From Candidatus Bathyarchaeota archaeon (GTDB taxonomy: Archaea; Thermoproteota; Bathyarchaeia; 40CM-2-53-6), in the NCBI GenBank assembly GCA_005883075.1, contig VBAX01000051.1, positions 1 to 58,433 of the forward strand: a stretch of 58,433 nt of DNA. The letters are read 5' to 3'. The notes under the pieces are model-generated. The model ran no database searches. It was not told the origin of the DNA and saw nothing but the letters and a program-made list of their open reading frames with translations. Shown one piece after another: positions 9,799-22,268 of this stretch (position 1 is its first letter; every line of letters begins with the position of its first letter). The translations under genes and the position numbers were made by a program.

Positions 9799-12423
9799 GT
9801 GGCCCAGCCTCTGCCCTACATGGCCCTGAAAGATGCGCCAGTCCAGATCCGGCGAGCCGCCACCGTCGCCCAGATCTCCATCAGCATCACACGCGCCCTC
9901 GGAATACTATTCACCACCCTAATCATAGCCACCCTCCCAACATGGGTCCCTGGCCTCCTCGCCTACCAGACAATACCAGTCGCACTCCTCGTCCTCGCGA
10001 TCGGCTCGGTCATCGTCTCACGCAAAGGCAGCAGGATAAGGGAAGAGATCGCAGAGCGACAGTTCGAAAAAGTACGCCGCAGCACCTTCGCCACCGCCAT
10101 CCTAGGATTCATAATCGGCGGCATCATACCCGGCCTACTCTACATCTACCTCTACACCCGAATAGGCAACGTCATGGTCAAACAGACCCCTGACGATCCC
10201 AGAACAGTCTACCTCCTCCCACACCCCAGCGAGGGCATCTTCCTGGGCCGCTACCTCGGATGGATCGGAGCATACCTCCTCGTCCTCTACATCGGCTACA
10301 CCCAGCTATCACCGGGCCTCCGAGAAGTAAGCGACTGGCTCTCACCAGTCCTAGGCGTCCACTTCAACACGATGATCATCGCCCTATTCCTCGTCTTCAC
10401 CAACCCGCTAACCTATCCCCCACTACTCTACCTCTGGACCTTCGCAGGATTCCTCGGCGGCCTAATCGCCGGCGGAAAAATCAGACGAGGCTTCCTAGTC
10501 GGCATGACAGTATACCTCTCAACCCTCGGAGCACTAGGACTCGCAGCCCTCGCAATCTACCAGAACGTCAACCTCTCAACACTCTCCAGCCTTCCGCCAC
10601 CACCACCAGGCTTCTCGATCATAAGCGCCACCTCAGGACCCGTAGCAGGCGACATCATCCCGATCCTCATCCAAGGCGCGTCTCCAACAACCCAGATGGT
10701 AATCCAAGACGTCATACTCACCATGATAAGAAACGCTGGCCTCGTCTTCGCTGTAGCCACAATATCCGGTCGAGCCGCCTCCCTCTTCTGGCAAGGAGAC
10801 GTTTTCATCCTCAAAACATTCTGGAAGACGATCAAGACCAGGAAACCAAATCTGCCACAGACCACTCGCACCCGCGCCATACCAAAAAAGGGAATCCTCC
10901 TGCTCGCGCTCGCAATCCTCTTCCTTATCCCAACCCAGCATACAACCCAGCCCTCAACAATCACCCAAGCACCACCAGGCGGGCCTTACCAGCAAAACCT
11001 GGCAATCGGACTGGACATGCTCGGTGCCCCCAACGCCAGTTTACGAATGACAAACCTTGACCTCTCAAGCAAAGGTCTTGTCCTCGACAACAACTACGCC
11101 GGAAACAATCTCTCCCTCTTCATAATCAACAACAATTACTCACAATCCCTCGGCACCAGTTCTGGCCTCGGAATCCCAAGCTTCATCCTCGGACTATTCT
11201 CACAGCCCGCCCTGATCACATTCTATACAGGAGACCCAGCAACGACCCGAGGAGAATCCGATAATGTTGCAGCTCAATTCGCCCAAGCCCTAGGCGTCGG
11301 CTTCACCAAAGCCTTCGCCATTCCCTCAGGCCAAGGAACTGTCACAATTTATGCGCCTAACCCTGAACTCACAAACAACGACGCCCTCACACGAGTCCTC
11401 GGGCTCCTACCCGGCTCAAGCTTCTCCACCCTCATCAAACCAGCCAATCTCCAAACCCTACAATACTTGGCCGCAGTAGGCCTCGCAAGCATAAGCCTCC
11501 CAGCCCCACTCACCCAAACGCCCACCCAAGCATTCAGCTTCATCCTCAACACCCAATTCGCACGCCAATTCTACAAAGCAGGACAACACTATCTCAGCCT
11601 GAAAACACTATTTGGATTCCAGACTGGAATCGTCGGAGACACCAACTCAAACGCCTCCATCGTCTCCATCAGTTTCCAACGAGGAACAGTTCTCTACAGC
11701 CCGCTCGGACAAGTGCCGCCCTCCAACCCAATCTACGACAACTTCACCTCGACATACATCTACAACGCCACCATAACACCGAGATCAGACTTTGCAGCGA
11801 ACTTCACCTATCCATTCGCCCCAAACATAACCATACATAAAACCGTGAACCCGCCTAGCGGACCTCTAGGGACCGCCCATAACATCGTAGTTATGATCCA
11901 GAACTTCGACAACGTTACCGTCACAAATCTCAACGTCACCGATGACGAGGCGCCATCTTCATACCAGAAGACGCTCCAGATCTCGCCCAGCGGCGTACAA
12001 ACCGGCCAATTCGCCAACTTCCCTCCAAGCCAGACACAATTCCTCAGCTATACAGCAACAACAAAAAGCAGCGGAACCTATGTTCTATCGCCGGCAATCA
12101 TCGAGTTTGTCTGGGAAGCACCGAACGGAACGCGGGTCCGATACACGGTTGCCACCGACAATCCTCTGATCTCGTCATCAAGCGGACCCTGGACACAGTT
12201 CACAAGAACGTTCACCGACCTCCAGCCCTACTCCTACCTACTTCTTCTCCCTCTTCTACTCACACCAATCATTGAAACCCTGAAACTTCTCGGCAGACAT
12301 CGGAAGAGGAAACCCGAGCCCTGGGTCAGCGCACCTATGAGACCTCAAAACACACCTCCGCCCCCGCCTGCGCAAGCAGGACCCGACAAACCCGCCGACA
12401 TGCCGAGCTCCAAAAATCCTTGA
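9799..12423 (+). CDS. Large multi-pass membrane protein with extracellular domain and C-terminal Ig-like region
   Basis: 874 aa; N-terminal TM bundle, many N-x-S/T sequons, ITIHKTVNP...NVTVTNLNVTD Ig-like segment, C-terminal TM and Pro-rich tail. Confidence 0.8.
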   Translation: MAQPLPYMALKDAPVQIRRAATVAQISISITRALGILFTTLIIATLPTWVPGLLAYQTIPVALLVLAIGSVIVSRKGSRIREEIAERQFEKVRRSTFATAILGFIIGGIIPGLLYIYLYTRIGNVMVKQTPDDPRTVYLLPHPSEGIFLGRYLGWIGAYLLVLYIGYTQLSPGLREVSDWLSPVLGVHFNTMIIALFLVFTNPLTYPPLLYLWTFAGFLGGLIAGGKIRRGFLVGMTVYLSTLGALGLAALAIYQNVNLSTLSSLPPPPPGFSIISATSGPVAGDIIPILIQGASPTTQMVIQDVILTMIRNAGLVFAVATISGRAASLFWQGDVFILKTFWKTIKTRKPNLPQTTRTRAIPKKGILLLALAILFLIPTQHTTQPSTITQAPPGGPYQQNLAIGLDMLGAPNASLRMTNLDLSSKGLVLDNNYAGNNLSLFIINNNYSQSLGTSSGLGIPSFILGLFSQPALITFYTGDPATTRGESDNVAAQFAQALGVGFTKAFAIPSGQGTVTIYAPNPELTNNDALTRVLGLLPGSSFSTLIKPANLQTLQYLAAVGLASISLPAPLTQTPTQAFSFILNTQFARQFYKAGQHYLSLKTLFGFQTGIVGDTNSNASIVSISFQRGTVLYSPLGQVPPSNPIYDNFTSTYIYNATITPRSDFAANFTYPFAPNITIHKTVNPPSGPLGTAHNIVVMIQNFDNVTVTNLNVTDDEAPSSYQKTLQISPSGVQTGQFANFPPSQTQFLSYTATTKSSGTYVLSPAIIEFVWEAPNGTRVRYTVATDNPLISSSSGPWTQFTRTFTDLQPYSYLLLLPLLLTPIIETLKLLGRHRKRKPEPWVSAPMRPQNTPPPPPAQAGPDKPADMPSSKNP

Positions 12424-12536: not shown

Positions 12537-12558
12537 GACCCCTTCGTTTCCACTGGAG
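12537..12558 (-). promoter_or_regulatory. ORB element (Orc1/Cdc6 recognition box)
   Basis: Minus strand CTCCAGTGGAAACGAAGGGGTC matches the archaeal ORB consensus with G-string. Confidence 0.8.
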
Positions 12559-12681
12559 CCCGTGGAAAATGACAGGATTATCAGTTGAGCATGTTCACAT
12601 ACAATATGAACAATGATGCGCGAGCCTTTTCTACATGTGAACTACGAACTGTGAATGCCACAGTTTTCTCGAGGAACAAAG

Positions 12682-13107
12682 ATGAGACCACGACGATTGA
12701 AGGTAGAATTCTACGACCAGGAAGGAGTCCGACACTCCATCGCGATCGACGGCCCTGTGACGAAGGAGAAAGTGGGTAGAATATTGGACCTGGTTGAGTT
12801 AATGTCCGGAACGCCTCAGGCGTCCGCTGCGGCCCTCGGACTGTCCCCCAGAAAATTCGACAGGCTAGCCAGCACAATCATATCCCAGCTGAAAGGAAGA
12901 GCCTTCACGTCACGCGAAGCGAGAAAAATGTTCGAGACTACCTTTGGAGAAAAGATACCTTTGAGCACGGTGTCCACCTATCTAACAAGGCTAACAGATC
13001 GCGGAGTCCTTGAGAGACGGCAGGAAAAACTTGGTTTAGCGTATCGAGTCAAGCTTGATGAGCAGAAACAGTCTCTCGCTCCTGCTCCTTTCCTTCAGCC
13101 TTCGTAA
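12682..13107 (+). CDS. Hypothetical protein with C-terminal winged HTH
   Basis: FTSREARKMFETTFGEKIPLSTVSTYLTRLTDRGVLERR; start ATG 12682 (ORF track 12655). Confidence 0.8.
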   Translation: MRPRRLKVEFYDQEGVRHSIAIDGPVTKEKVGRILDLVELMSGTPQASAAALGLSPRKFDRLASTIISQLKGRAFTSREARKMFETTFGEKIPLSTVSTYLTRLTDRGVLERRQEKLGLAYRVKLDEQKQSLAPAPFLQPS

Positions 13108-13726
13108 AGCTCTGCTTCACACGTTCCACAGTCGAGTATCGAAATGGGATCCGAGTCTGGTCCCGTCGAACATACCCCTCATCAAAGAGCTTCTTCATCA
13201 AACGAGCTGTGTGTTCCCTAGAACGTCCCACAACTCTTCCTATTTCTGGCGCCGACTTTGGCCCTTCGTCCGCCAAGAGAGTAAGCACTTGAAGCTCAGT
13301 GGGAGTAGTTATCGAGTTCAATGAGCCCGGCTGCACAACGGAAGGATCCATCCGGATTGGAGATTGAATCACGGTTGACTGTAAGCTAGGTCTTACAGGC
13401 TCCGATATCTCCTCGATCACCTTCGTTGCGGTTGAAATTGTTGCGGAAGGGTGCAGAACTGTATCAGCGACCTCCTTAATCCAGTTCAGCGACTCCCCCA
13501 GAAGCTTCTCCGTCTTTTGCAGCCGCTCAAGCAACACTAAATCGGAAAGCTTGGACTGATCACCCGAAATCTTGAGCCTTTCAACCTCAATGGCCAAGTC
13601 CCTTAGGCTCGCCTCGAAAGAGCTGAGCCTGGAAGAGAATACGTCGAAGAACAGCTTCGCAACATCCCCATTTCCAGGGGACCCCTTAACCCCCGCTCCG
13701 ATTGACCGTTTCCCTATTCCAAACAT
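13049..13726 (-). CDS. Coiled-coil + C-terminal MarR-like wHTH protein
   Basis: Heptad-like FEASLRDLAIEVERLK; TELQVLTLL...SAPEIGRVVGRSREHTARLMKKLFDEGYV; start taken at ATG 13726, just after the palindrome array. Confidence 0.8.
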   Translation of the reverse strand: MFGIGKRSIGAGVKGSPGNGDVAKLFFDVFSSRLSSFEASLRDLAIEVERLKISGDQSKLSDLVLLERLQKTEKLLGESLNWIKEVADTVLHPSATISTATKVIEEISEPVRPSLQSTVIQSPIRMDPSVVQPGSLNSITTPTELQVLTLLADEGPKSAPEIGRVVGRSREHTARLMKKLFDEGYVRRDQTRIPFRYSTVERVKQSFTKAEGKEQERETVSAHQA

Positions 13727-13730
13727 TTCT

Positions 13731-13992
13731 GTGACATCACACGATATGAACCGTGACGTCACCGTAAGCTCTACATGCGCATTTAACACTAACGATTGTG
13801 ACATTAATCCAGAGGGAACGCCATCACGAGTGATGATGTCGTGACTCCCGTGTTGCATCGTGACATCAAGCGCATGACATGTTAACTAACGTCTACTCTC
13901 AACCTCGCCAGAACGAACTCCCGATGGTAAAATTTGGAATAACGACCGTGATGTATGTGATGCCTAATCACTCGTGTGACGTCACGTATCAC
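13731..13992. repeat. Array of GTGAYRTCAC palindromic sites
   Basis: GTGACATCAC 13731, GTGACGTCAC 13753, GTGACATTAA 13798, ATGATGTCGT 13833, GTGACATCAA 13860, ATGACATGTT 13874, GTGATGTATG 13948, GTGATGCCTA 13957, GTGACGTCAC 13976. Confidence 0.8.
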
Positions 13993-14473
13993 GATTCCTT
14001 CCGAACATCGCATGAAACGCATGCTCAAGGTCATCGATTATCGAGTCCACGGTTCGCTGATAGACCTCAGGCTCGCCTTGCCCTGCGTCTCTGAGCTGGG
14101 AAGTTTGAGTTTTGAGGCGCTCTGAAGCTTCCAAAAAGGGGGCGATGCTTGGGGATTCCGTCAAGCCACAGTAGCCGAGGAGGAGAACGGTGTGAATTGC
14201 CTCCACAACATTTTCTCTCGCTTGTCTTAGGGTTCTATTGAAGGATCCGCGGCTGATTCCCTTCTCGTCCCGCCGCAATTGAGCCATATCACTGCGTGTT
14301 AGGCGTTTATTCGCCATATCATGTCCAAGCTGGTCTACCAGAAGCGTTTCGAACTGTGCTCCCGTTAGATTACTGCGCCGCAAAAGTGCTGAGAGTATTC
14401 TATCACCAAGCGTTTCCTCGATAACCGCACGCGTTCCCTCGTGCCAACCCTTTGACGTGTCAGAATTCTCCAT
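13982..14473 (-). CDS. Hypothetical protein with HTH-like segment
   Basis: SNLTGAQFETLL...LTRSDMAQLR...ISRGSFNRTLRQARENV. Confidence 0.75.
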   Translation of the reverse strand: MENSDTSKGWHEGTRAVIEETLGDRILSALLRRSNLTGAQFETLLVDQLGHDMANKRLTRSDMAQLRRDEKGISRGSFNRTLRQARENVVEAIHTVLLLGYCGLTESPSIAPFLEASERLKTQTSQLRDAGQGEPEVYQRTVDSIIDDLEHAFHAMFGRNRDT

Positions 14474-14595
14474 GGATACGGTTTTGTATCCGTCACTATT
14501 GTATCTTGCTCAGCCTCGCTTAGCAACGTTGGCAAGTTACACCACGCTTATTCCACAACTTTGACACCTTCGAATTAGTCAAACGCGGGTCTTAC

Positions 14596-15702
14596 ATGGC
14601 CACAGATGCGAGAACAGAATCAGGCAATTTGGTGGTGGACATGGTCTGTGACGTTTGCCGGGTCGAGGGATTTGAAGTTGAGAAGAACGCACAGGCAGGG
14701 GATTCGCCTACCCATTTTGTGGACATTCTCGCGTCCAGGAAGAAGGGTAAGAAGATGCAGAAAGTCGCCTTCGAATGCTGGGAAGGATCCAGTCAAGTTG
14801 AGGGACTGGAAGTCGAGAAGTTCGCGGCCCGCTTGAAAAGCCTGGGAATTCAGAGCGGAATCTACGTTTCTCCAAAAGGGTTCGGCGGCAACGCCGAATT
14901 CATGGCCCGCAAGCTCGGCGTCGAGCTTTGGGATCTGGCTAAGCTGAAGGAGAGGGTAGAAAATATCAAAGCCCCAGAGAGACACAAAGTTCCGGGAACG
15001 CTACCGGTCGCGAGAGCAGCGGCATCTCGCCTCTTGGCTCATGGCTTAGCCAACGGCACTTTCCTCAAGCTATCCTCTATGCCAAGACTTGAGTTTCGAC
15101 CGTACTTCTTTTCCAATTTCCAGATCGATAATCAACGGAAAAAACTGGCAGTGGGAGTTCTCGTGTTTGACGGTGTAGACGGTCGCGTATGCGACGCAGG
15201 TCTCTTCGAGGGACACATGGACGACCTTCCATCAACTGGGTTCTTTGTTGATTGTCTGGAGATCGAGCCGTCAATAGGTTCCATGCCGAAGCTGCCTCCT
15301 GAACTTGAGATGAAGAACACTGTTACCGTTGCGCCAGCAGGGGTAACTGAGGACATGGTCCGATCTAAAACCAAGGAAGCGGTGAGCGGTCATGGCAATG
15401 CAACCGTAACGGGGGTTCAATTGCTCCATGTTCCCATAGTGACCGTAGAGATGCTTGCTGCGGGCAAGTCCTATCGAAAGATCCTTCAGGCAGCTACGGG
15501 AGAGATGATCTGGGACGATACTCAGAAGTGTTCTCTTTGTGATCAAAAGTCCAGGGCGATATGCGAGGTCTGTGGTGGGACGGTTTGTGGTGAGCATGAG
15601 AGGACTTGCAGTTCCTGCCGCAAGCACCTTTGCACGGATTGCGTTGTGACCAAGGGGATCGTGAACAAGATTCCGCTTTGCCCGACGTGCAAGAATGCCT
15701 AG
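14596..15702 (+). CDS. Mrr-like PD-(D/E)xK nuclease domain fused to C-terminal zinc fingers
   Basis: VDILASR...VAFECW...GIYVSPKGF...ELWD resembles Mrr_cat; C-terminal run of CxxC/CxxH pairs. Confidence 0.75.
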   Translation: MATDARTESGNLVVDMVCDVCRVEGFEVEKNAQAGDSPTHFVDILASRKKGKKMQKVAFECWEGSSQVEGLEVEKFAARLKSLGIQSGIYVSPKGFGGNAEFMARKLGVELWDLAKLKERVENIKAPERHKVPGTLPVARAAASRLLAHGLANGTFLKLSSMPRLEFRPYFFSNFQIDNQRKKLAVGVLVFDGVDGRVCDAGLFEGHMDDLPSTGFFVDCLEIEPSIGSMPKLPPELEMKNTVTVAPAGVTEDMVRSKTKEAVSGHGNATVTGVQLLHVPIVTVEMLAAGKSYRKILQAATGEMIWDDTQKCSLCDQKSRAICEVCGGTVCGEHERTCSSCRKHLCTDCVVTKGIVNKIPLCPTCKNA

Positions 15703-15808: not shown

Positions 15809-16030
15809 CTATCTAGGGATGTGGTTTTCTGCTATTGCTGCCTTGGCGAGCCGCTGTATCGTTTCCTCATGTCTGCTGATGTGAGCCATCATGTCCAACC
15901 GTAGCCTTTGCATCGCTGCTCGAGCGGCATCTCGTGCGGCCTGCTCCATCAAAGGGGTAAGCCTCTCTTCCATCCTCTTCAACAGCGCCTCTTCGAGCCG
16001 TAGAACCTCTTCTTCCCGCAATGTCTCCAT
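15809..16030 (-). CDS. Small coiled-coil protein
   Basis: 73 aa; strong SD GGAGGTGA upstream of ATG. Confidence 0.65.
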   Translation of the reverse strand: METLREEEVLRLEEALLKRMEERLTPLMEQAARDAARAAMQRLRLDMMAHISRHEETIQRLAKAAIAENHIPR

Positions 16031-16313: not shown

Positions 16314-16937
16314 CTAGCCAAGAGGTTCTGCAGAGAACAGGCCTCTAGCAAGTATACCCGCAACCCGCAAAGGTTCAGGCATTCGCGAGACGAATGCCGA
16401 AGCTTTCAAGATCAACCTGGTCTCACGAATTGAGCATCCGAACTGTTCAAAGAACACGGGACCTTCACTAGTTGTCCGAAGTTTGTGTATTGGGCCAAGT
16501 GATCTGATCAGTTCCCATCTCTTCTCCCAATCAGGAAAATGTTTGACCAGGGCACGCTTCACAGCCCTGTTATCCGGCCGGGAACCGACGACCACGATCA
16601 CCGGCGCCTTGCACAATTTCAGGACCTTCCAAGGGTCGATAAGATTGAATCCTCCGAAGGTCACGCCCGACAACAACACCGGAATCTTGTGGGAATCTCT
16701 GAGGAGAAACTCGGCTTTTCTAGTTGCGTCCAGCCCGTCAACTGTAATCCAGTCAGCTCTGAATTGATGAAGGTGAGGGCCTTTCAGCCAGACGGCTAGG
16801 AGAGGAGCGTGTCGGACCTTATCATCGGTTTTCGGCGGAAACGGGCCATCATCTATCCCAATACATCTAGAGACTTGTTTGATGTTTGAGGACGCTCCGT
16901 GGAACAAAGGTAAGCAACCCACGAACCATCTCGTCAA
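16314..16937 (-). CDS. DUF99 family protein (endonuclease V-like fold); start uncertain, probably near 16883
   Basis: IGIDDGPF, ITVDGLDAT, LSGVTFGGFNLID, PEPLRVA motifs. Confidence 0.88.
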   Translation of the reverse strand: MTRWFVGCLPLFHGASSNIKQVSRCIGIDDGPFPPKTDDKVRHAPLLAVWLKGPHLHQFRADWITVDGLDATRKAEFLLRDSHKIPVLLSGVTFGGFNLIDPWKVLKLCKAPVIVVVGSRPDNRAVKRALVKHFPDWEKRWELIRSLGPIHKLRTTSEGPVFFEQFGCSIRETRLILKASAFVSRMPEPLRVAGILARGLFSAEPLG

Positions 16938-18114
16938 CGTTGAATGAAGCGGTCACTGACCGAGCTTCGACGCCGAGCCGTATCTTCTTTGTTCGACCGT
17001 ACCGGCCGAAACTTACTACTCGCGCGTTTAGCACCCCCATAATGTCCAGCTCGTTGAGCAGTCCGCTAACCCTTCGCTGGGTGAGGGGTTCGACTGATCC
17101 AGCGCTGCACAGCTCGCGGTATACCTCGTATACGTCGCCTGTTACCGAACTCTCTTTCCTGGTATTCTCTAGCTGCATGACTGAGATTAGTAGGATTCGG
17201 GAGTGGAGGGGGAGGGATGATAGGGCTTCTGCCACGCGGTCATGTTCGACTTTCTGTTGTGCTTCGCGAACGTGGTTTTCGCCGACACGTAGCTCGCGTG
17301 ATCTTTCGGCAATCTCAGCGGCTACTCTGAGGAGATCGAGGGCGCGTCGTGCGTCACCGTGTTCTCCTGCGGCCAGGGCTGCGCAAAGGTGGAGAGCGCC
17401 TTCATCTAGAACTCCGGATCGGAAGGCGAGTTGTGCCCGTTCCTTTAGAATGTCATGTAGTTCGTCTGAGGTGTAGGGTTTGAACACGACTTCCTCCTCT
17501 CCTAGCGAGCTTAGGACTCTGGGGTCTAGGAAGTCTTTGAAGTGGAGGTCGTTGGATATTCCTATGAGCCCGATCCAGCCTTCGGTCAGTTTCTCGTTTA
17601 TCCTGGTTAGCTCGTAGAGTAGACTATCGTCTTCGCTTCTCTTCACCAACGCGTCTATCTCGTCCAGGACGACGAGGAATGCGGAGCCGCGTGATTGGAG
17701 AGCGCTTCTGAACCGGTCCAGAAGCTCGCCGACCGCTAGTCCAGTGAAGGGTACTTCTCGACCCAGAGATCTGCACAGATCGGCAATGACTCTGTAGTTT
17801 GTTCCTGCGAGACGGCAGTTGACGTAGCTCGTATCGAGGGCTCGTCCGTGTTCGCGAGCCTTCCGCTGTAACCGATCTAGAACGAATTTGGTCACGATTG
17901 TCTTTCCTGTTCCAGTTTTGCCGTAGGCGAAAAGGTTGGACACTCGATCTTTTGTCAGAGCTGGGGCGAGCACGGATCCGAGCCGGCGGATCTGTTCTTC
18001 TCTGTGTGGAAGGGTTGCAGGCATGTAGTCATGCCTGAGGAGGTTTCTGTCCCGGAAGACTTCTCCTCCTGACAGGACCCTTTCGAAGATGAGATCCAAT
18101 CCTTGCTGTGACAA
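16867..18114 (-). CDS. cdc6: Orc1/Cdc6 replication initiator
   Basis: LPHREEQI, Walker A GKTGTGKT, Walker B VVLDEID, GDARRALDLLR, C-terminal wH GRYGRT. Confidence 0.97.
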   Translation of the reverse strand: MSQQGLDLIFERVLSGGEVFRDRNLLRHDYMPATLPHREEQIRRLGSVLAPALTKDRVSNLFAYGKTGTGKTIVTKFVLDRLQRKAREHGRALDTSYVNCRLAGTNYRVIADLCRSLGREVPFTGLAVGELLDRFRSALQSRGSAFLVVLDEIDALVKRSEDDSLLYELTRINEKLTEGWIGLIGISNDLHFKDFLDPRVLSSLGEEEVVFKPYTSDELHDILKERAQLAFRSGVLDEGALHLCAALAAGEHGDARRALDLLRVAAEIAERSRELRVGENHVREAQQKVEHDRVAEALSSLPLHSRILLISVMQLENTRKESSVTGDVYEVYRELCSAGSVEPLTQRRVSGLLNELDIMGVLNARVVSFGRYGRTKKIRLGVEARSVTASFNVDEMVRGLLTFVPRSVLKHQTSL

Positions 18115-18146
18115 GCCTGAAACAGTCCGGTTTTCTGCGAGCTGGC

Positions 18147-18165
18147 TTCCAGTGGAATTAAGGGT
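18147..18165 (+). promoter_or_regulatory. ORB element in cdc6 promoter
   Basis: TTCCAGTGGAATTAAGGGT. Confidence 0.7.
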
Positions 18166-18280
18166 TCTCGTACAATGATTTCAACTGGACAAACCAAAAA
18201 CCCGATCATCGCTCCAAATAATTCCTGCCTAGAGACAGTTTCCCTTCAACCAGTCCTGCGTCACGAGATGCTCTGTGCAA

Positions 18281-20464: not shown

Positions 20465-20695
20465 TACCTCTACCCGTACCCCTCTCCTTCCTCTGGAGAC
20501 TTGTTAAGAGATTACTCAGAAAACTCCCTGTCCTCTGCCTGGTACAGAATTTGAGACGAATTGGTTATGGAAAATATACAGGTCTGCATAAATTATCATA
20601 ATGCTAGTTAACCTTACCAGTAAGTTTTCTTAGAGTAAATTTAACACCCAAGGTAAGTTGAGGATTTGCACTGGAAACCCTGGGGTGGGGGTAGG
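20465..20695. other. Probable replication origin (inverted ORB-like sites flanking an AT-rich DUE)
   Basis: Minus-strand CTCCAGAGGAAGGAGAGGGGT (20478-20498), AT-rich ~20562-20645, plus-strand TTGCACTGGAAACCCTGGGGTGGGGGT (20666-20692); lies between cdc6 and DP1. Confidence 0.72.
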
Positions 20696-20759: not shown

Positions 20760-22268
20760 TTACTGGAAGTTGATCATCTTGACATCAAGGGTTTTCAGGT
20801 TAACAACAGGAAGGATTCCTGGCTTGGGGACTAGTCCCATCCGTTTCTGATAGTCCGTCTGTCCTTGCCATGCGCCACTATTCACTATCGTTGTTCCTCT
20901 GTAGAGGCCTGCACCTGAAACGTGGATGTGTCCCGAGGTAAAAACGTCCGGGACCCGATCTATCACTAGGAAGTCCTCTTGCTCGGGCCCAATGGGTGTC
21001 ATCTTCCCGTACTCGGGAGATAGATGACGGGCTCGCAGCTGGTACTCCATTGCCTCTACTGGACGTTGATAATCGAGCCCGGGGACTCCGCTCAGGATAT
21101 CCATCAGGCTAGTTCCATGGTAGAGTAGAAACTGGACCCCATGCAAGCGAACCTCCGCTGGATCTCCCAGCGAAACAATCTTCCGCGAGTCGTAAACAGG
21201 TCCGGCGAAATCTTTCGGGATGGCGGGTTGTGGCAGGGCCTGGCGTACTGCGTCATGATTCCCCGGTATCAATACCACGTCCATGTACTCTGGGATCTCG
21301 CTCACGAATTTCGCTGCGATTCGGTACTGTTCATAGATGTCGGGAACCGCAAGGTCCACCTCTTGGCGAGGATAAATCCCGATCCCGTCGACAAGGTCGC
21401 CCCCGATCAGAACATACTTTACTCGCTCGGCGACTTCGCGCTGGTTCGGTGTTCCAATCTCTCCTTTCAACCAGCTTAGGACCCGGCGGAACTCATTCTC
21501 GAGAAACACTTTGCTCCCGACATGAACATCGGATATTAGCGCGGCGTAGATCTCTTCGTTTGCATGATTGGGCTTTCTATCCGGTATCTCGGGGAGGACA
21601 ATGCTTTCCGCGACCAGAAGGGGGCCTGCGCTCTTCCGAGCCTGGATGTAGATGACTTGGTCCCTGACTATCTTTCTCGCCATCTCATACACTGTAGAGT
21701 TCTGTCGTCCAACTAGGACGGTAGCTTCATCCTCGTAGTCGTCAACCGTCAGAAAGATCCTGTCGCCTTTCTCTCTCTTTTCGAGGACCATGCAGATGAA
21801 GCGGCCCCGTCCATTTGATCCACCTTGAAGCGCGTCGGAAATGGTCCCGGCGTTTCGGGTGTCCATTCTCTGCCTGAAGAGCAGGCTCATCTTGTCGAAA
21901 CGGTTTCTGAAATAATGGAGAAAATCATCAAAAGCGCCCGTCGTTCCGAGCTTACCTGTAGGGTCCGAGACAACTTCTAGCCGAGACTCAAGCTCCTCAG
22001 CAAACCGTCGTGCATGCCGCAAACCAGCATGCTCTGCCTCCGTAACTTTGCTGGAGAGGTCTAGCTGTTCAGCTGCCTTGAGAACGAGGTCTCTGCTTAT
22101 CGATGAGGGTCGTGGTTCCACGGTTCCAGCGACTCGAAGGACTTCTCTGACAAGAGGGTCGAGCTGGCCTGCGCTGCTGATCTCCATGAGGGTTTTGAAG
22201 GCGTCGCTTTCCATCTGGAAACCTGCTTCCAGTATGGTGCCGATTGCCCTCTTCATCTCTTCAGACAT
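20760..22268 (-). CDS. polB: DNA polymerase D small subunit DP1
   Basis: ISDVHVGS, GDLVDGIGIYP, PGNHDA, YHG, RARHLSP, SGHIH, NSGAWQGQT. Confidence 0.96.
   Translation of the reverse strand: MSEEMKRAIGTILEAGFQMESDAFKTLMEISSAGQLDPLVREVLRVAGTVEPRPSSISRDLVLKAAEQLDLSSKVTEAEHAGLRHARRFAEELESRLEVVSDPTGKLGTTGAFDDFLHYFRNRFDKMSLLFRQRMDTRNAGTISDALQGGSNGRGRFICMVLEKREKGDRIFLTVDDYEDEATVLVGRQNSTVYEMARKIVRDQVIYIQARKSAGPLLVAESIVLPEIPDRKPNHANEEIYAALISDVHVGSKVFLENEFRRVLSWLKGEIGTPNQREVAERVKYVLIGGDLVDGIGIYPRQEVDLAVPDIYEQYRIAAKFVSEIPEYMDVVLIPGNHDAVRQALPQPAIPKDFAGPVYDSRKIVSLGDPAEVRLHGVQFLLYHGTSLMDILSGVPGLDYQRPVEAMEYQLRARHLSPEYGKMTPIGPEQEDFLVIDRVPDVFTSGHIHVSGAGLYRGTTIVNSGAWQGQTDYQKRMGLVPKPGILPVVNLKTLDVKMINFQ

Follow-up and report, generated by a model that had tools for sequence, protein, structure and literature searches.

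A conserved three-gene cluster beside orc1/cdc6 in Bathyarchaeia and ammonia-oxidising archaea, with a putatively autoregulated winged-helix protein

We describe three small genes, g1, g2 and g3, that lie near the Orc1/Cdc6 initiator gene (hereafter cdc6) of a Candidatus Bathyarchaeota archaeon, on a stretch of 58,433 nucleotides (contig VBAX01000051.1 of assembly GCA_005883075.1; hereafter the window). The window is one contig (C108 in our analysis, genome label G000) of an assembly of 1.9 Mb in 147 contigs, with a completeness of 87.6%. It comes from a soil Bathyarchaeia metagenome-assembled genome, whose nearest protein relatives are labelled Candidatus Bathyarchaeota or Bathyarchaeia and are soil-derived. 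A first-pass annotation of this DNA had proposed a segregation or cell-cycle module, in which a centromere-like array and three helix-turn-helix (HTH)-like proteins would be under Cdc6 control.

Genes and DNA sites of the trio

The open reading frames (ORFs) of g1 (12682-13107, plus strand, 141 aa), g2 (13049-13726, minus strand, 225 aa) and g3 (13982-14473, minus strand, 163 aa) were all found where the first-pass annotation had placed them. The 59-nt convergent overlap of g1 and g2 (13049-13107) that it had claimed was also present, as was the distance of about 2.4 kb to cdc6, measured from g3 (14473) to the cdc6 stop (16867). Among the 23 Bathyarchaeia loci holding both genes, g1 and g2 overlap by 8-74 nt in 18, lie ~2.6 kb apart in four and abut in one. 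The cdc6 gene itself (16867-18114, minus strand) was confirmed by Pfam and encodes a slowly evolving Orc1/Cdc6 copy, with 93-99% identity among close genus members and 79-84% in distant ones.

The spacer between g3 and g2 carries a dense array of GTGA-N2-TCAC sites (13731-13985), in agreement with the palindrome array that had been claimed within the trio. We counted 14 GTGA/TCAC tetramers over 264 nt, where 1.9 would be expected; this is the maximum for the window when it is scanned in sliding stretches of that length. Seven of the window's 12 GTGACRT matches fall in the array. Two proximal palindromes, GTGACATCAC at 13731-13740 and GTGACGTCAC at 13753-13762, lie 5-36 nt 5' of the g2 ATG and downstream of a TATA-like box, TTAAAT (13781-13786, minus strand), which is part of the block GTTAGTGTTAAATGC. 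The middle of the array (13798-13869) holds GTGACAT half-sites at 13798 and 13860 and the palindrome ATCACGAGTGAT at 13823-13834, while the distal palindrome, again GTGACGTCAC (13976-13985), includes the TGA stop codon of g3. We aligned this spacer from 11 genomes of the window's family (alignment A5) and found the TATA-like box, a putative promoter element, to be near-invariant. On the g3 side, the alignment shows the g3 stop inside the distal palindrome, several ATCAC/GTGAT half-sites and a middle TGACGTCA element; on the g2 side, an ATCAC-N2-GTGAT palindrome, the GTTAGTGTTAAATGC block, palindromes at about -36 and -14 and the g2 ATG follow. Transcription in archaea starts about 25 nt past the TATA box, so both proximal palindromes would cover the start site and leader of g2, which is the standard position for an archaeal repressor.

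The palindrome at the g3 stop tracks g2. We examined 34 Bathyarchaeia loci with g3, 27 of which hold g2 and seven of which do not. The sequence GTGANNTCAC was present within 25 nt of the g3 stop in 25/27 loci with g2, overlapping the stop in 21, and in 0/7 loci without it. The g3 stop is TGA in 26/27 of the former and in 2/7 of the latter. The Fisher test for co-occurrence of palindrome and g2 gave p = 7e-6, which overstates the association because eight loci belong to one closely related genus group and such kin are not independent. In two families (f5 and f6), a palindrome lies exactly 28 nt before the g2 ATG. The g2 upstream regions of ammonia oxidisers lack a full palindrome and are rich in TGTGA/ATCACA, as judged by eye with no count or control. 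One further Bathyarchaeia locus (L034; G210:C15, 4689-9470) has five GTGAYRTCAC palindromes over ~5 kb between g2 and g3, which suggests a larger g2 site set there.

Across the whole assembly, GTGAYRTCAC occurs seven times (6.4 expected), three times in the array and four times inside ORFs. We ruled out these last four as further genomic targets of g2 and attribute them to chance. With seven sites only, distributed in this way, g2 looks like a local regulator. The description of the array as centromere-like is not supported as it stood: its proximal sites fall between TTAAAT and the g2 ATG, they track g2 and they have no other intergenic copies. This anatomy is of the autoregulatory kind, and the palindromes are best read as putative g2 operators for autorepression.

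The co-occurrence described above, together with a CRP-like recognition helix in the protein, makes g2 the likely binder of the palindromes. We place its start at the ATG at 13726, codon M45 in a 269-aa ORF. The longer reading can be discarded, as stop codons interrupt the extension in relatives even though its DNA is conserved. The C-terminus of g2 (residues 185-245 of the 269-aa ORF) scored over the Pfam cut-offs for both MarR (29.3 bits; cut-off 24.6) and TrmB (28.7 bits; cut-off 25.6), and thereby matches the MarR/TrmB winged-helix profiles. Alignment of 13 g2 homologues (alignment A3) revealed L148, R170, E171, H172, R175 and Y197 as invariant, and R170, E171, H172 and R175 lie in the recognition helix. 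The HTH, PEIGRVVGRSREHTARLMKKL, aligns without gaps to QEIGRIVGCSREMVGRVLKSL of Vfr/CRP; this match is weak (E 0.05-0.9), and Vfr/CRP chains form the majority of the match list for the segment. CRP reads its TGTGA half-site through R, E and R of the recognition helix. Classical MarR proteins are ~140-150 aa long and have dimerising flanking helices, whereas in g2 the winged-helix segment alone aligns with them and the N-terminal 140 residues form a separate helical part. This part matched coiled-coil chains weakly, and no coiled-coil predictor was run. By domain, g2 is in the MarR/TrmB winged-helix superfamily; by architecture, it does not appear to be a classical MarR.

An N-terminal hydrophobic helix followed by basic residues was found in 23/36 g2 homologues, taking a 19-residue Kyte-Doolittle mean (KD19) of about 1.9 or more as the call for a membrane helix. 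The helix is present in 8/9 homologues from other Bathyarchaeia orders, in 7/7 homologues of the ammonia-oxidiser family described below (f18) and in four within the window's order. By the positive-inside rule, the coiled coil and winged helix of such proteins face the cytoplasm. The g2 of the window genus is without a membrane helix (maximum KD19 0.75) and starts ~20 residues before the conserved (D/E)I(V/I)xSFxxxL motif, which elsewhere comes after the helix. These comparisons suggest that g2 was ancestrally a membrane-anchored winged-helix protein; since most g2 lineages carry the helix, a membrane-tethered protein would hold origin-proximal DNA in them.

For g1, the start is the ATG at 12682, which is conserved and preceded by a conserved GAGG (alignment A4); the first ATG of the ORF, at 12655, is unconserved. 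The AlphaFold2 model of g1 (predicted local distance difference test score, pLDDT, 72.5) shows a small N-terminal domain of a beta-hairpin and a helix, strongly conserved among relatives (alignment A2), and then a C-terminal winged helix. Foldseek matched the C-terminal half best to Fur, RosR, MarR and BlaI (prob 1.00, E 7e-4 to 1e-2), and the predicted model has the three-helix bundle and beta wing of the winged-helix fold in this half. No family passed its cut-off in the Pfam scan of g1, the closest being Penicillinase_R (21.7 bits; cut-off 22.6), and one g1 relative weakly matched the MCM_C winged helix (E 3.7e-4, under the cut-off). A predicted complex of g1 and g3, both supplied as alignments, scored 0.00, which has no bearing either way.

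Upstream of g1 lies a complete origin recognition box (ORB) at 12537-12558 (minus strand), which confirms the first-pass annotation on this point. It consists of CTCCAGTGGAAAC, GAA and a GGGG G-string (full sequence GACCCCTTCGTTTCCACTGGAG) and is located about 125-145 nt 5' of the g1 ATG. The core CTCCAGTGGAAAC was matched exactly once in the window (12546-12558, minus strand), and when its GAAGGGG G-string is included, only two further ORBs of the 1.9-Mb assembly are as good. A TTCAC-N-GTGAA dyad precedes it (alignment A4), and a second half-element, an inverted TGGAAA, comes right after it (12559-12568; inverted repeat I25). The putative promoter region of g1 (12590-12655, plus strand) contains blocks conserved in A4, namely TTTTCTAC and, just ahead of the GAGG ribosome-binding site, GTGAAC / GAAC / GTGAA repeats. 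The ORB core is unchanged in 10/10 aligned relatives, including those where g1 no longer adjoins cdc6. It could be either a kept Orc1/Cdc6 control site or a relic of a split origin; we favour a function because the ORB is invariant across a family whose g1 has ceased to face cdc6. The Cdc6 control once proposed for the module is plausible for g1 alone, and would act through this ORB.

The AlphaFold2 model of g3 is all-helical (pLDDT 82.8, predicted template modelling score 0.73) and ends in a C-terminal helical hairpin. The conserved core of the protein reads LTxxQxExL ... SRGxFxRTLxQAxxN ... TxLLLGY. R75, G76, R80, Q84 and N88 lie on one long helix (alignment A1) and are near-invariant in 100 diverse members, a pattern that would suit a nucleic-acid-reading helix. 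Profile searches of Pfam, NCBIfam and PDB with g3 gave no match, and Foldseek against PDB gave nothing at E <= 0.001. A wide VIA-align search reached a best Z of 7.1, on the C-terminal hairpin only and within the range usual for helical models; this hairpin dominated the fold searches. Two leads are weak: DUF134 matches 2/100 family members (best E 6e-4), and an Atlas cluster (score 0.78) has 14% of members with Sigma70_r4. The family is of modest size, with 345 representatives at E <= 0.001 among 1.84 billion. An inverted repeat, GGATAC-N6-GTATCC (14474-14500), lies directly 5' of the g3 ATG, with a GTGAC half-site after it, and may serve in the control of g3. The first-pass description of three HTH-like genes is therefore supported for g1 and g2, which have winged helices, and not for g3, in which sequence and fold searches gave no clear HTH match beyond the two weak leads.

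Many soil metagenomes contain the population of the window. Metatranscriptome contigs from two runs of one study overlap g1 in part (12715-13041), and likewise g3 (14221-14512). As DNA carry-over is possible, they indicate only weakly that both genes are transcribed in soil. The contigs of this study cover neither g2 nor the spacers and are silent on g2 expression.

Position of the origin and conservation of gene order

Two inverted ORBs with G-strings, ACCCCTCTCCTTCCTCTGGAG at 20477-20499 and TTGCACTGGAAACCCTGGGGT at 20664-20685, flank ~165 nt of low-GC DNA and adjoin the gene for the PolD small subunit (20760-22268). Together with the g1 ORB, they rank as the top three ORBs of the assembly. 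Inverted ORBs with G-strings are the usual anatomy of archaeal origins, and 20477-20685, ~2.4 kb upstream of cdc6, combines them with an A+T-rich stretch. The g1 spacer (12.4-12.7 kb) has a single ORB, and its GC over 60 nt falls no lower than 0.37, so it does not look like an origin. We therefore regard 20477-20685 as the likeliest oriC of the window. The trio had been called origin-proximal, which is right in that it lies 2.4 kb from cdc6 and not supported in that this likeliest oriC is not adjacent to it. In relatives, the spacer between cdc6 and g1 carries inverted ORBs with G-strings 130-196 nt apart. Weaker ORB-like elements, TTCCAGTGGAATTAAGGGT (plus strand) and GTCCAGTTGAAAT (minus strand), were seen right upstream of the cdc6 start (18145-18190) and may be an autoregulatory Orc1 site. 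GC skew fails to locate the origin because the skew of the window is dominated by a single Pro/Thr-rich gene.

We compared gene content in 41 genomes of the window's order, comprising the window genome and 40 relatives. Homologues of g3 were found in 37, of g1 in 35 and of g2 in 30, and the orthologous cdc6 in 40 (36, 34, 29 and 39 among the relatives). From coordinates, g1 or g3 lies on the cdc6 contig within ~6 kb in 31/40 relatives. In six others (G001, G009, G014, G022, G023 and G034), g1/g3 and cdc6 are on different, mostly short contigs, and three (G013, G029 and G030) gave no match. Outside the window's family, the common order is cdc6 (minus strand), a spacer of ~330-600 bp, g1 (plus strand), sometimes g2 (minus strand), and g3 (minus strand); g1 and g3 are kept also in loci where g2 was lost.

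A g3 profile matched 97/201 sampled genomes of the phylum, with nothing in seven families of that sample (f19, f23, f24, f26, f27, f32 and f34). From this sample we fetched 20 loci around g3, nine from other Bathyarchaeia orders and 11 from other classes. In the other Bathyarchaeia orders, 8/9 fetched loci contain cdc6 and g2, six of them g1 too; in the ninth, L034, g1 and g2 fall at the margin of what was fetched. In the other classes, cdc6 occurs with g1 and g2 in 3/11 loci (L038, L044 and L048), g1 and/or g2 stand beside g3 with no cdc6 in the stretch in 6/11 (two of them cut by a contig end), and g3 is alone in 2/11. L048 belongs to family f18, and its genome (G209) encodes an archaeal AmoA (E 7e-117), so we take it to be an ammonia oxidiser; f18 is called the ammonia-oxidiser family here through the AmoA match in this one genome. 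We collected another twelve loci of f18, which span a GC of 0.32-0.62. In all 13 the order is g1, g2, g3, and 12 include cdc6, the thirteenth running into the record end; the usual order is cdc6 <- oriC -> g1 <- g2 <- g3. A fourth small gene was seen between g1 and g2 in f18 loci (e.g. L052:5942-6103, minus strand). It encodes a 53-aa DNA-binding protein of the AbrB/MazE (SpoVT/AbrB) type (Pfam E 2e-8), and an A+T-rich stretch adjoins it.

Synteny with cdc6/oriC, which the first-pass annotation had named as the check on its module, held within the order, in 8/9 loci of the other Bathyarchaeia orders and in 12/13 f18 loci, and the three genes proved to be co-conserved near origins. The shared synteny implies that the cassette is ancient and origin-adjacent, and it indicates that the trio has stood beside the main orc1/cdc6 and the origin since before Bathyarchaeia and ammonia oxidisers split. 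Over this time the origin region was rearranged while the trio stayed intact near cdc6. The block of cdc6, endonuclease dU (Endo_dU) and a small ORF is inverted in the window compared with a locus of the same genus (L022) and one of another genus in the same family (L023); an Mrr_cat gene is present in L023 and L024 and absent in L022; and other orders have inserts of 2.4-2.6 kb between g2 and g1 or between g3 and g2.

The neighbours of the trio in the window are as follows. On the g1 side, a gene at 9799-12423 (plus strand) codes for a protein of 874 aa that is rich in Pro, Thr and Ser, has hydrophobic segments in its N-terminal part and matches no Pfam family. This gene is the source of a strong GC skew in its surroundings (-0.32 to -0.38) and adjoins g1 in the family loci that we checked (L001-L005, L007, L008, L022 and L024). 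On the other side, a gene at 14596-15702 (plus strand), inserted between g3 and cdc6, encodes a 368-aa protein with an N-terminal Mrr_cat nuclease domain (E 5e-9) and a Cys-rich C-terminal tail with CxxC motifs. A 73-aa Glu/Leu/Arg-rich ORF (15809-16030, minus strand) matched no known family and is kept beside Endo_dU in L022 and L023 (BLASTP E 1e-13 to 1e-15). The endonuclease dU gene (PF01949; 16314-16937, minus strand) lies directly 3' of cdc6 and overlaps it by 71 nt (16867-16937); most loci of the order, and several of other Bathyarchaeia, have it close to cdc6.

What the cassette may do

We tentatively favour the reading, to which we give slightly less than an even chance, that the trio is an origin-coupled regulatory circuit, a cassette of small DNA-binding-type proteins. 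The mechanism that we favour is drawn from anatomy and co-occurrence. In it, g2 would pair or oligomerise through its helical N-terminal part, and its winged helix, with an S-R-E-x-x-x-R helix as in CRP/Vfr, would read the GTGA-N2-TCAC palindromes and the extra GTGA half-sites. Bound between the TATA-like box and the ATG, g2 would silence the promoter of its own gene. At the g3 stop ~220 bp away, the third palindrome might loop to the proximal pair or block read-through from g3. Occupancy of the ORB by Orc1/Cdc6 would set g1 expression, with the GTGAA repeats at the g1 start site allowing feedback, and g3 would be a third, new kind of helical nucleic-acid binder. The replication state would then be read through the ORB and the output given through g1 and g3, without an ATPase-driven partition machine. 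In most lineages g2 would do this as a membrane-anchored protein, and in the window genus as a soluble one.

Several points weigh against a regulatory circuit. The CRP-type contacts are carried over from CRP, and the sequence match to Vfr/CRP is weak. Fourteen half-sites in 264 nt are denser than a simple operator needs, and a structural or tethering role would account for this density and the g2 membrane helix no less well than plain autoregulation. The lone g1 ORB may be a relic of the split origin and not a control site, and g3 is an undescribed family for which DNA binding is a prediction. Finally, outside Bathyarchaeia and f18, cdc6 is absent from the stretch in 8/11 g3 loci, two of which are cut by a contig end.

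The membrane helix of most g2 relatives keeps alive an origin-to-membrane tether, which we consider unlikely. Here the trio would be an ATPase-free tether or segregation system near the origin, with g2 and the array as a centromere-like complex tied to the membrane and g1 and g3 as adaptors or regulators. In addition to the helix in 23/36 homologues, the unusual density of the array, the strict origin adjacency across classes and the five palindromes over 5 kb in L034 fit this reading. A precedent exists in the origin-adjacent oapABC genes of haloarchaea, which reportedly position cell division (PMC13228585). The window genus, however, has kept the array with a g2 that has no membrane helix (maximum KD19 0.75), and neither the cassette nor the contig carries a motor or ATPase (AAA_31 search of the assembly; Pfam scan of 18 ORFs). 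The proximal sites also fall exactly on the g2 promoter, the assembly holds a single site cluster and, as membrane-anchored transcription factors are known as well, the helix fits a regulator too. A more specific form is a long shot in both its parts: that an anchored g2, assembled on the GTGA array, pins origin-near DNA to the membrane of the cell while g1, switched by Orc1/Cdc6 via its ORB, times or releases the tether together with g3 in the course of the cell cycle, and that this is an ATPase-free system of Bathyarchaeia and ammonia oxidisers from which the window genus derives by loss of the anchor.

The position of g1, divergent from cdc6 across an ORB-flanked spacer in most lineages, brings in accessory factors of initiation. 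In this reading, g1 and/or g3 would bind in or next to oriC and there influence how Orc1/Cdc6 binds, how the DNA opens, or how MCM is loaded or leaves; we judge it improbable, at about the level of the tether. It would explain why g1 and g3 are kept where g2 is lost, and the highly conserved N-domain of g1 would suit protein contacts. The weak MCM_C match in one g1 relative points the same way, and UBP of Sulfolobus shows that such factors exist (PMC12141716). Against this, no motif besides ORBs was seen to be both common to the origins and a target of g1 or g3, and several kb separate g1 from the likeliest oriC in the window genus. By description, and not by sequence comparison, the proteins have no known link to UBP, WhiP or Cdt1.

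Quite doubtful is the notion that all three are ordinary, unrelated transcription factors with targets elsewhere, left near cdc6 as the region rarely rearranges: they are small and regulator-like, g2 resembles a self-contained autorepressor and the cdc6 link is often broken outside Bathyarchaeia and f18, but the region does rearrange (block inversion, Mrr gain or absence, 2.4-2.6 kb inserts) and the trio stays together near cdc6, identically arranged in two classes and with an ORB kept at g1.

We infer an origin-associated gene cluster that is probably built around an autoregulated winged-helix protein, and that suggests an unstudied connection of DNA replication with the control of genes or the handling of chromosomes. 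To our knowledge, little is known outside a few model archaea about how the initiation of replication is coupled to expression, chromosome placement and division. The cassette is common to Bathyarchaeia of soil and sediment and to ammonia-oxidising archaea, with a conserved site array and ORB, and two of its three families (g1 and g3) have no Pfam model. It supplies both proteins and DNA sites with which to ask which factors other than Orc1/Cdc6 act at archaeal origins or read them out. Ammonia-oxidising archaea include cultured and globally abundant species, and as cultured ammonia oxidisers carry the same gene order, the question is directly testable. Beside the haloarchaeal oapABC, this is a second origin-adjacent three-gene cluster, unrelated to it by domain content.

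Comparison with known systems

We found no description of the cassette in the full-text literature, a search that left subscription papers and supplements outside. With the partition systems ParABS, SegAB and AspA-ParB-ParA, the trio has in common a putative site-specific DNA binder with sites just 5' of its own gene and near the origin. An AAA_31 search of the assembly, the single ATPase model searched, gave seven places, none on the window contig, and Pfam scans of the 18 ORFs between ~5.2 and 23.3 kb revealed no Walker-type ATPase. No partition ATPase accompanied the trio in the mapped loci, where homologues of eight window proteins only were sought, and no ParB- or SegB-like domain was found in the trio. 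The absence of a ParA/SegA ATPase that had been claimed for the window is thus supported for the contig (by AAA_31) and for the 18 ORFs scanned. With no partition ATPase at its side, the trio is also unlike ParABS, SegAB and AspA-ParBA, as had been proposed.

Other non-Orc DNA-binding proteins act at archaeal origins or are encoded beside them. UBP (ucm-binding protein) of Sulfolobus binds origin DNA and hundreds of sites genome-wide (PMC12141716), and WhiP is a winged-helix initiator associated with oriC3 (PMC3914693). The g1, g2 and g3 proteins would resemble these in kind, whereas the putative g2 motif, unlike the sites of UBP, is essentially confined to one locus.

As a putative repressor, g2 is like the autoregulated MarR/TrmB proteins in its winged helix and in the palindromes on its own promoter past the TATA box. 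It differs from them in its long helical N-terminal part, the membrane helix that is probably ancestral, its denser sites and its origin-locked gene. With CRP/Vfr it shares the ungapped HTH with S-R-E-x-x-x-R, and the (T)GTGA half-site of the array is also CRP-like; the half-site spacing is N2 and not N6. No cNMP-binding domain was found in g2 by Pfam or chain searches, and as the HTH region alone resembles Vfr/CRP, g2 does not belong to CRP/FNR.

Haloarchaeal oapABC (ArvABC, DipABC) are three genes beside the major origin, divergent from orc1 and class-wide (PMC7002104, PMC7921747). OapA is a small GTPase and OapB a DUF2073 protein (PMC10927574). For a long time the genes had no assigned function; they have now been connected with cell biology and not with replication as such (PMC10927574, PMC13228585), and a 2026 preprint presents the system as an oscillating, membrane-binding divisome positioner (PMC13228585). 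Pfam and NCBIfam scans gave no GTPase or DUF2073 match in g1, g2 or g3. We therefore rejected homology of the trio with oapABC on domain content as described in the papers, with no sequence comparison made. In position the two are alike: the trio also consists of three genes by orc1 at the origin, in the order cdc6 <- ORB spacer -> g1 <- g2 <- g3 in relatives, and in the window, where the block was rearranged, 2.4 kb separate it from the 3' end of cdc6. Among the systems compared, oapABC is the nearest parallel to the trio, an analogue by position and not by protein content.

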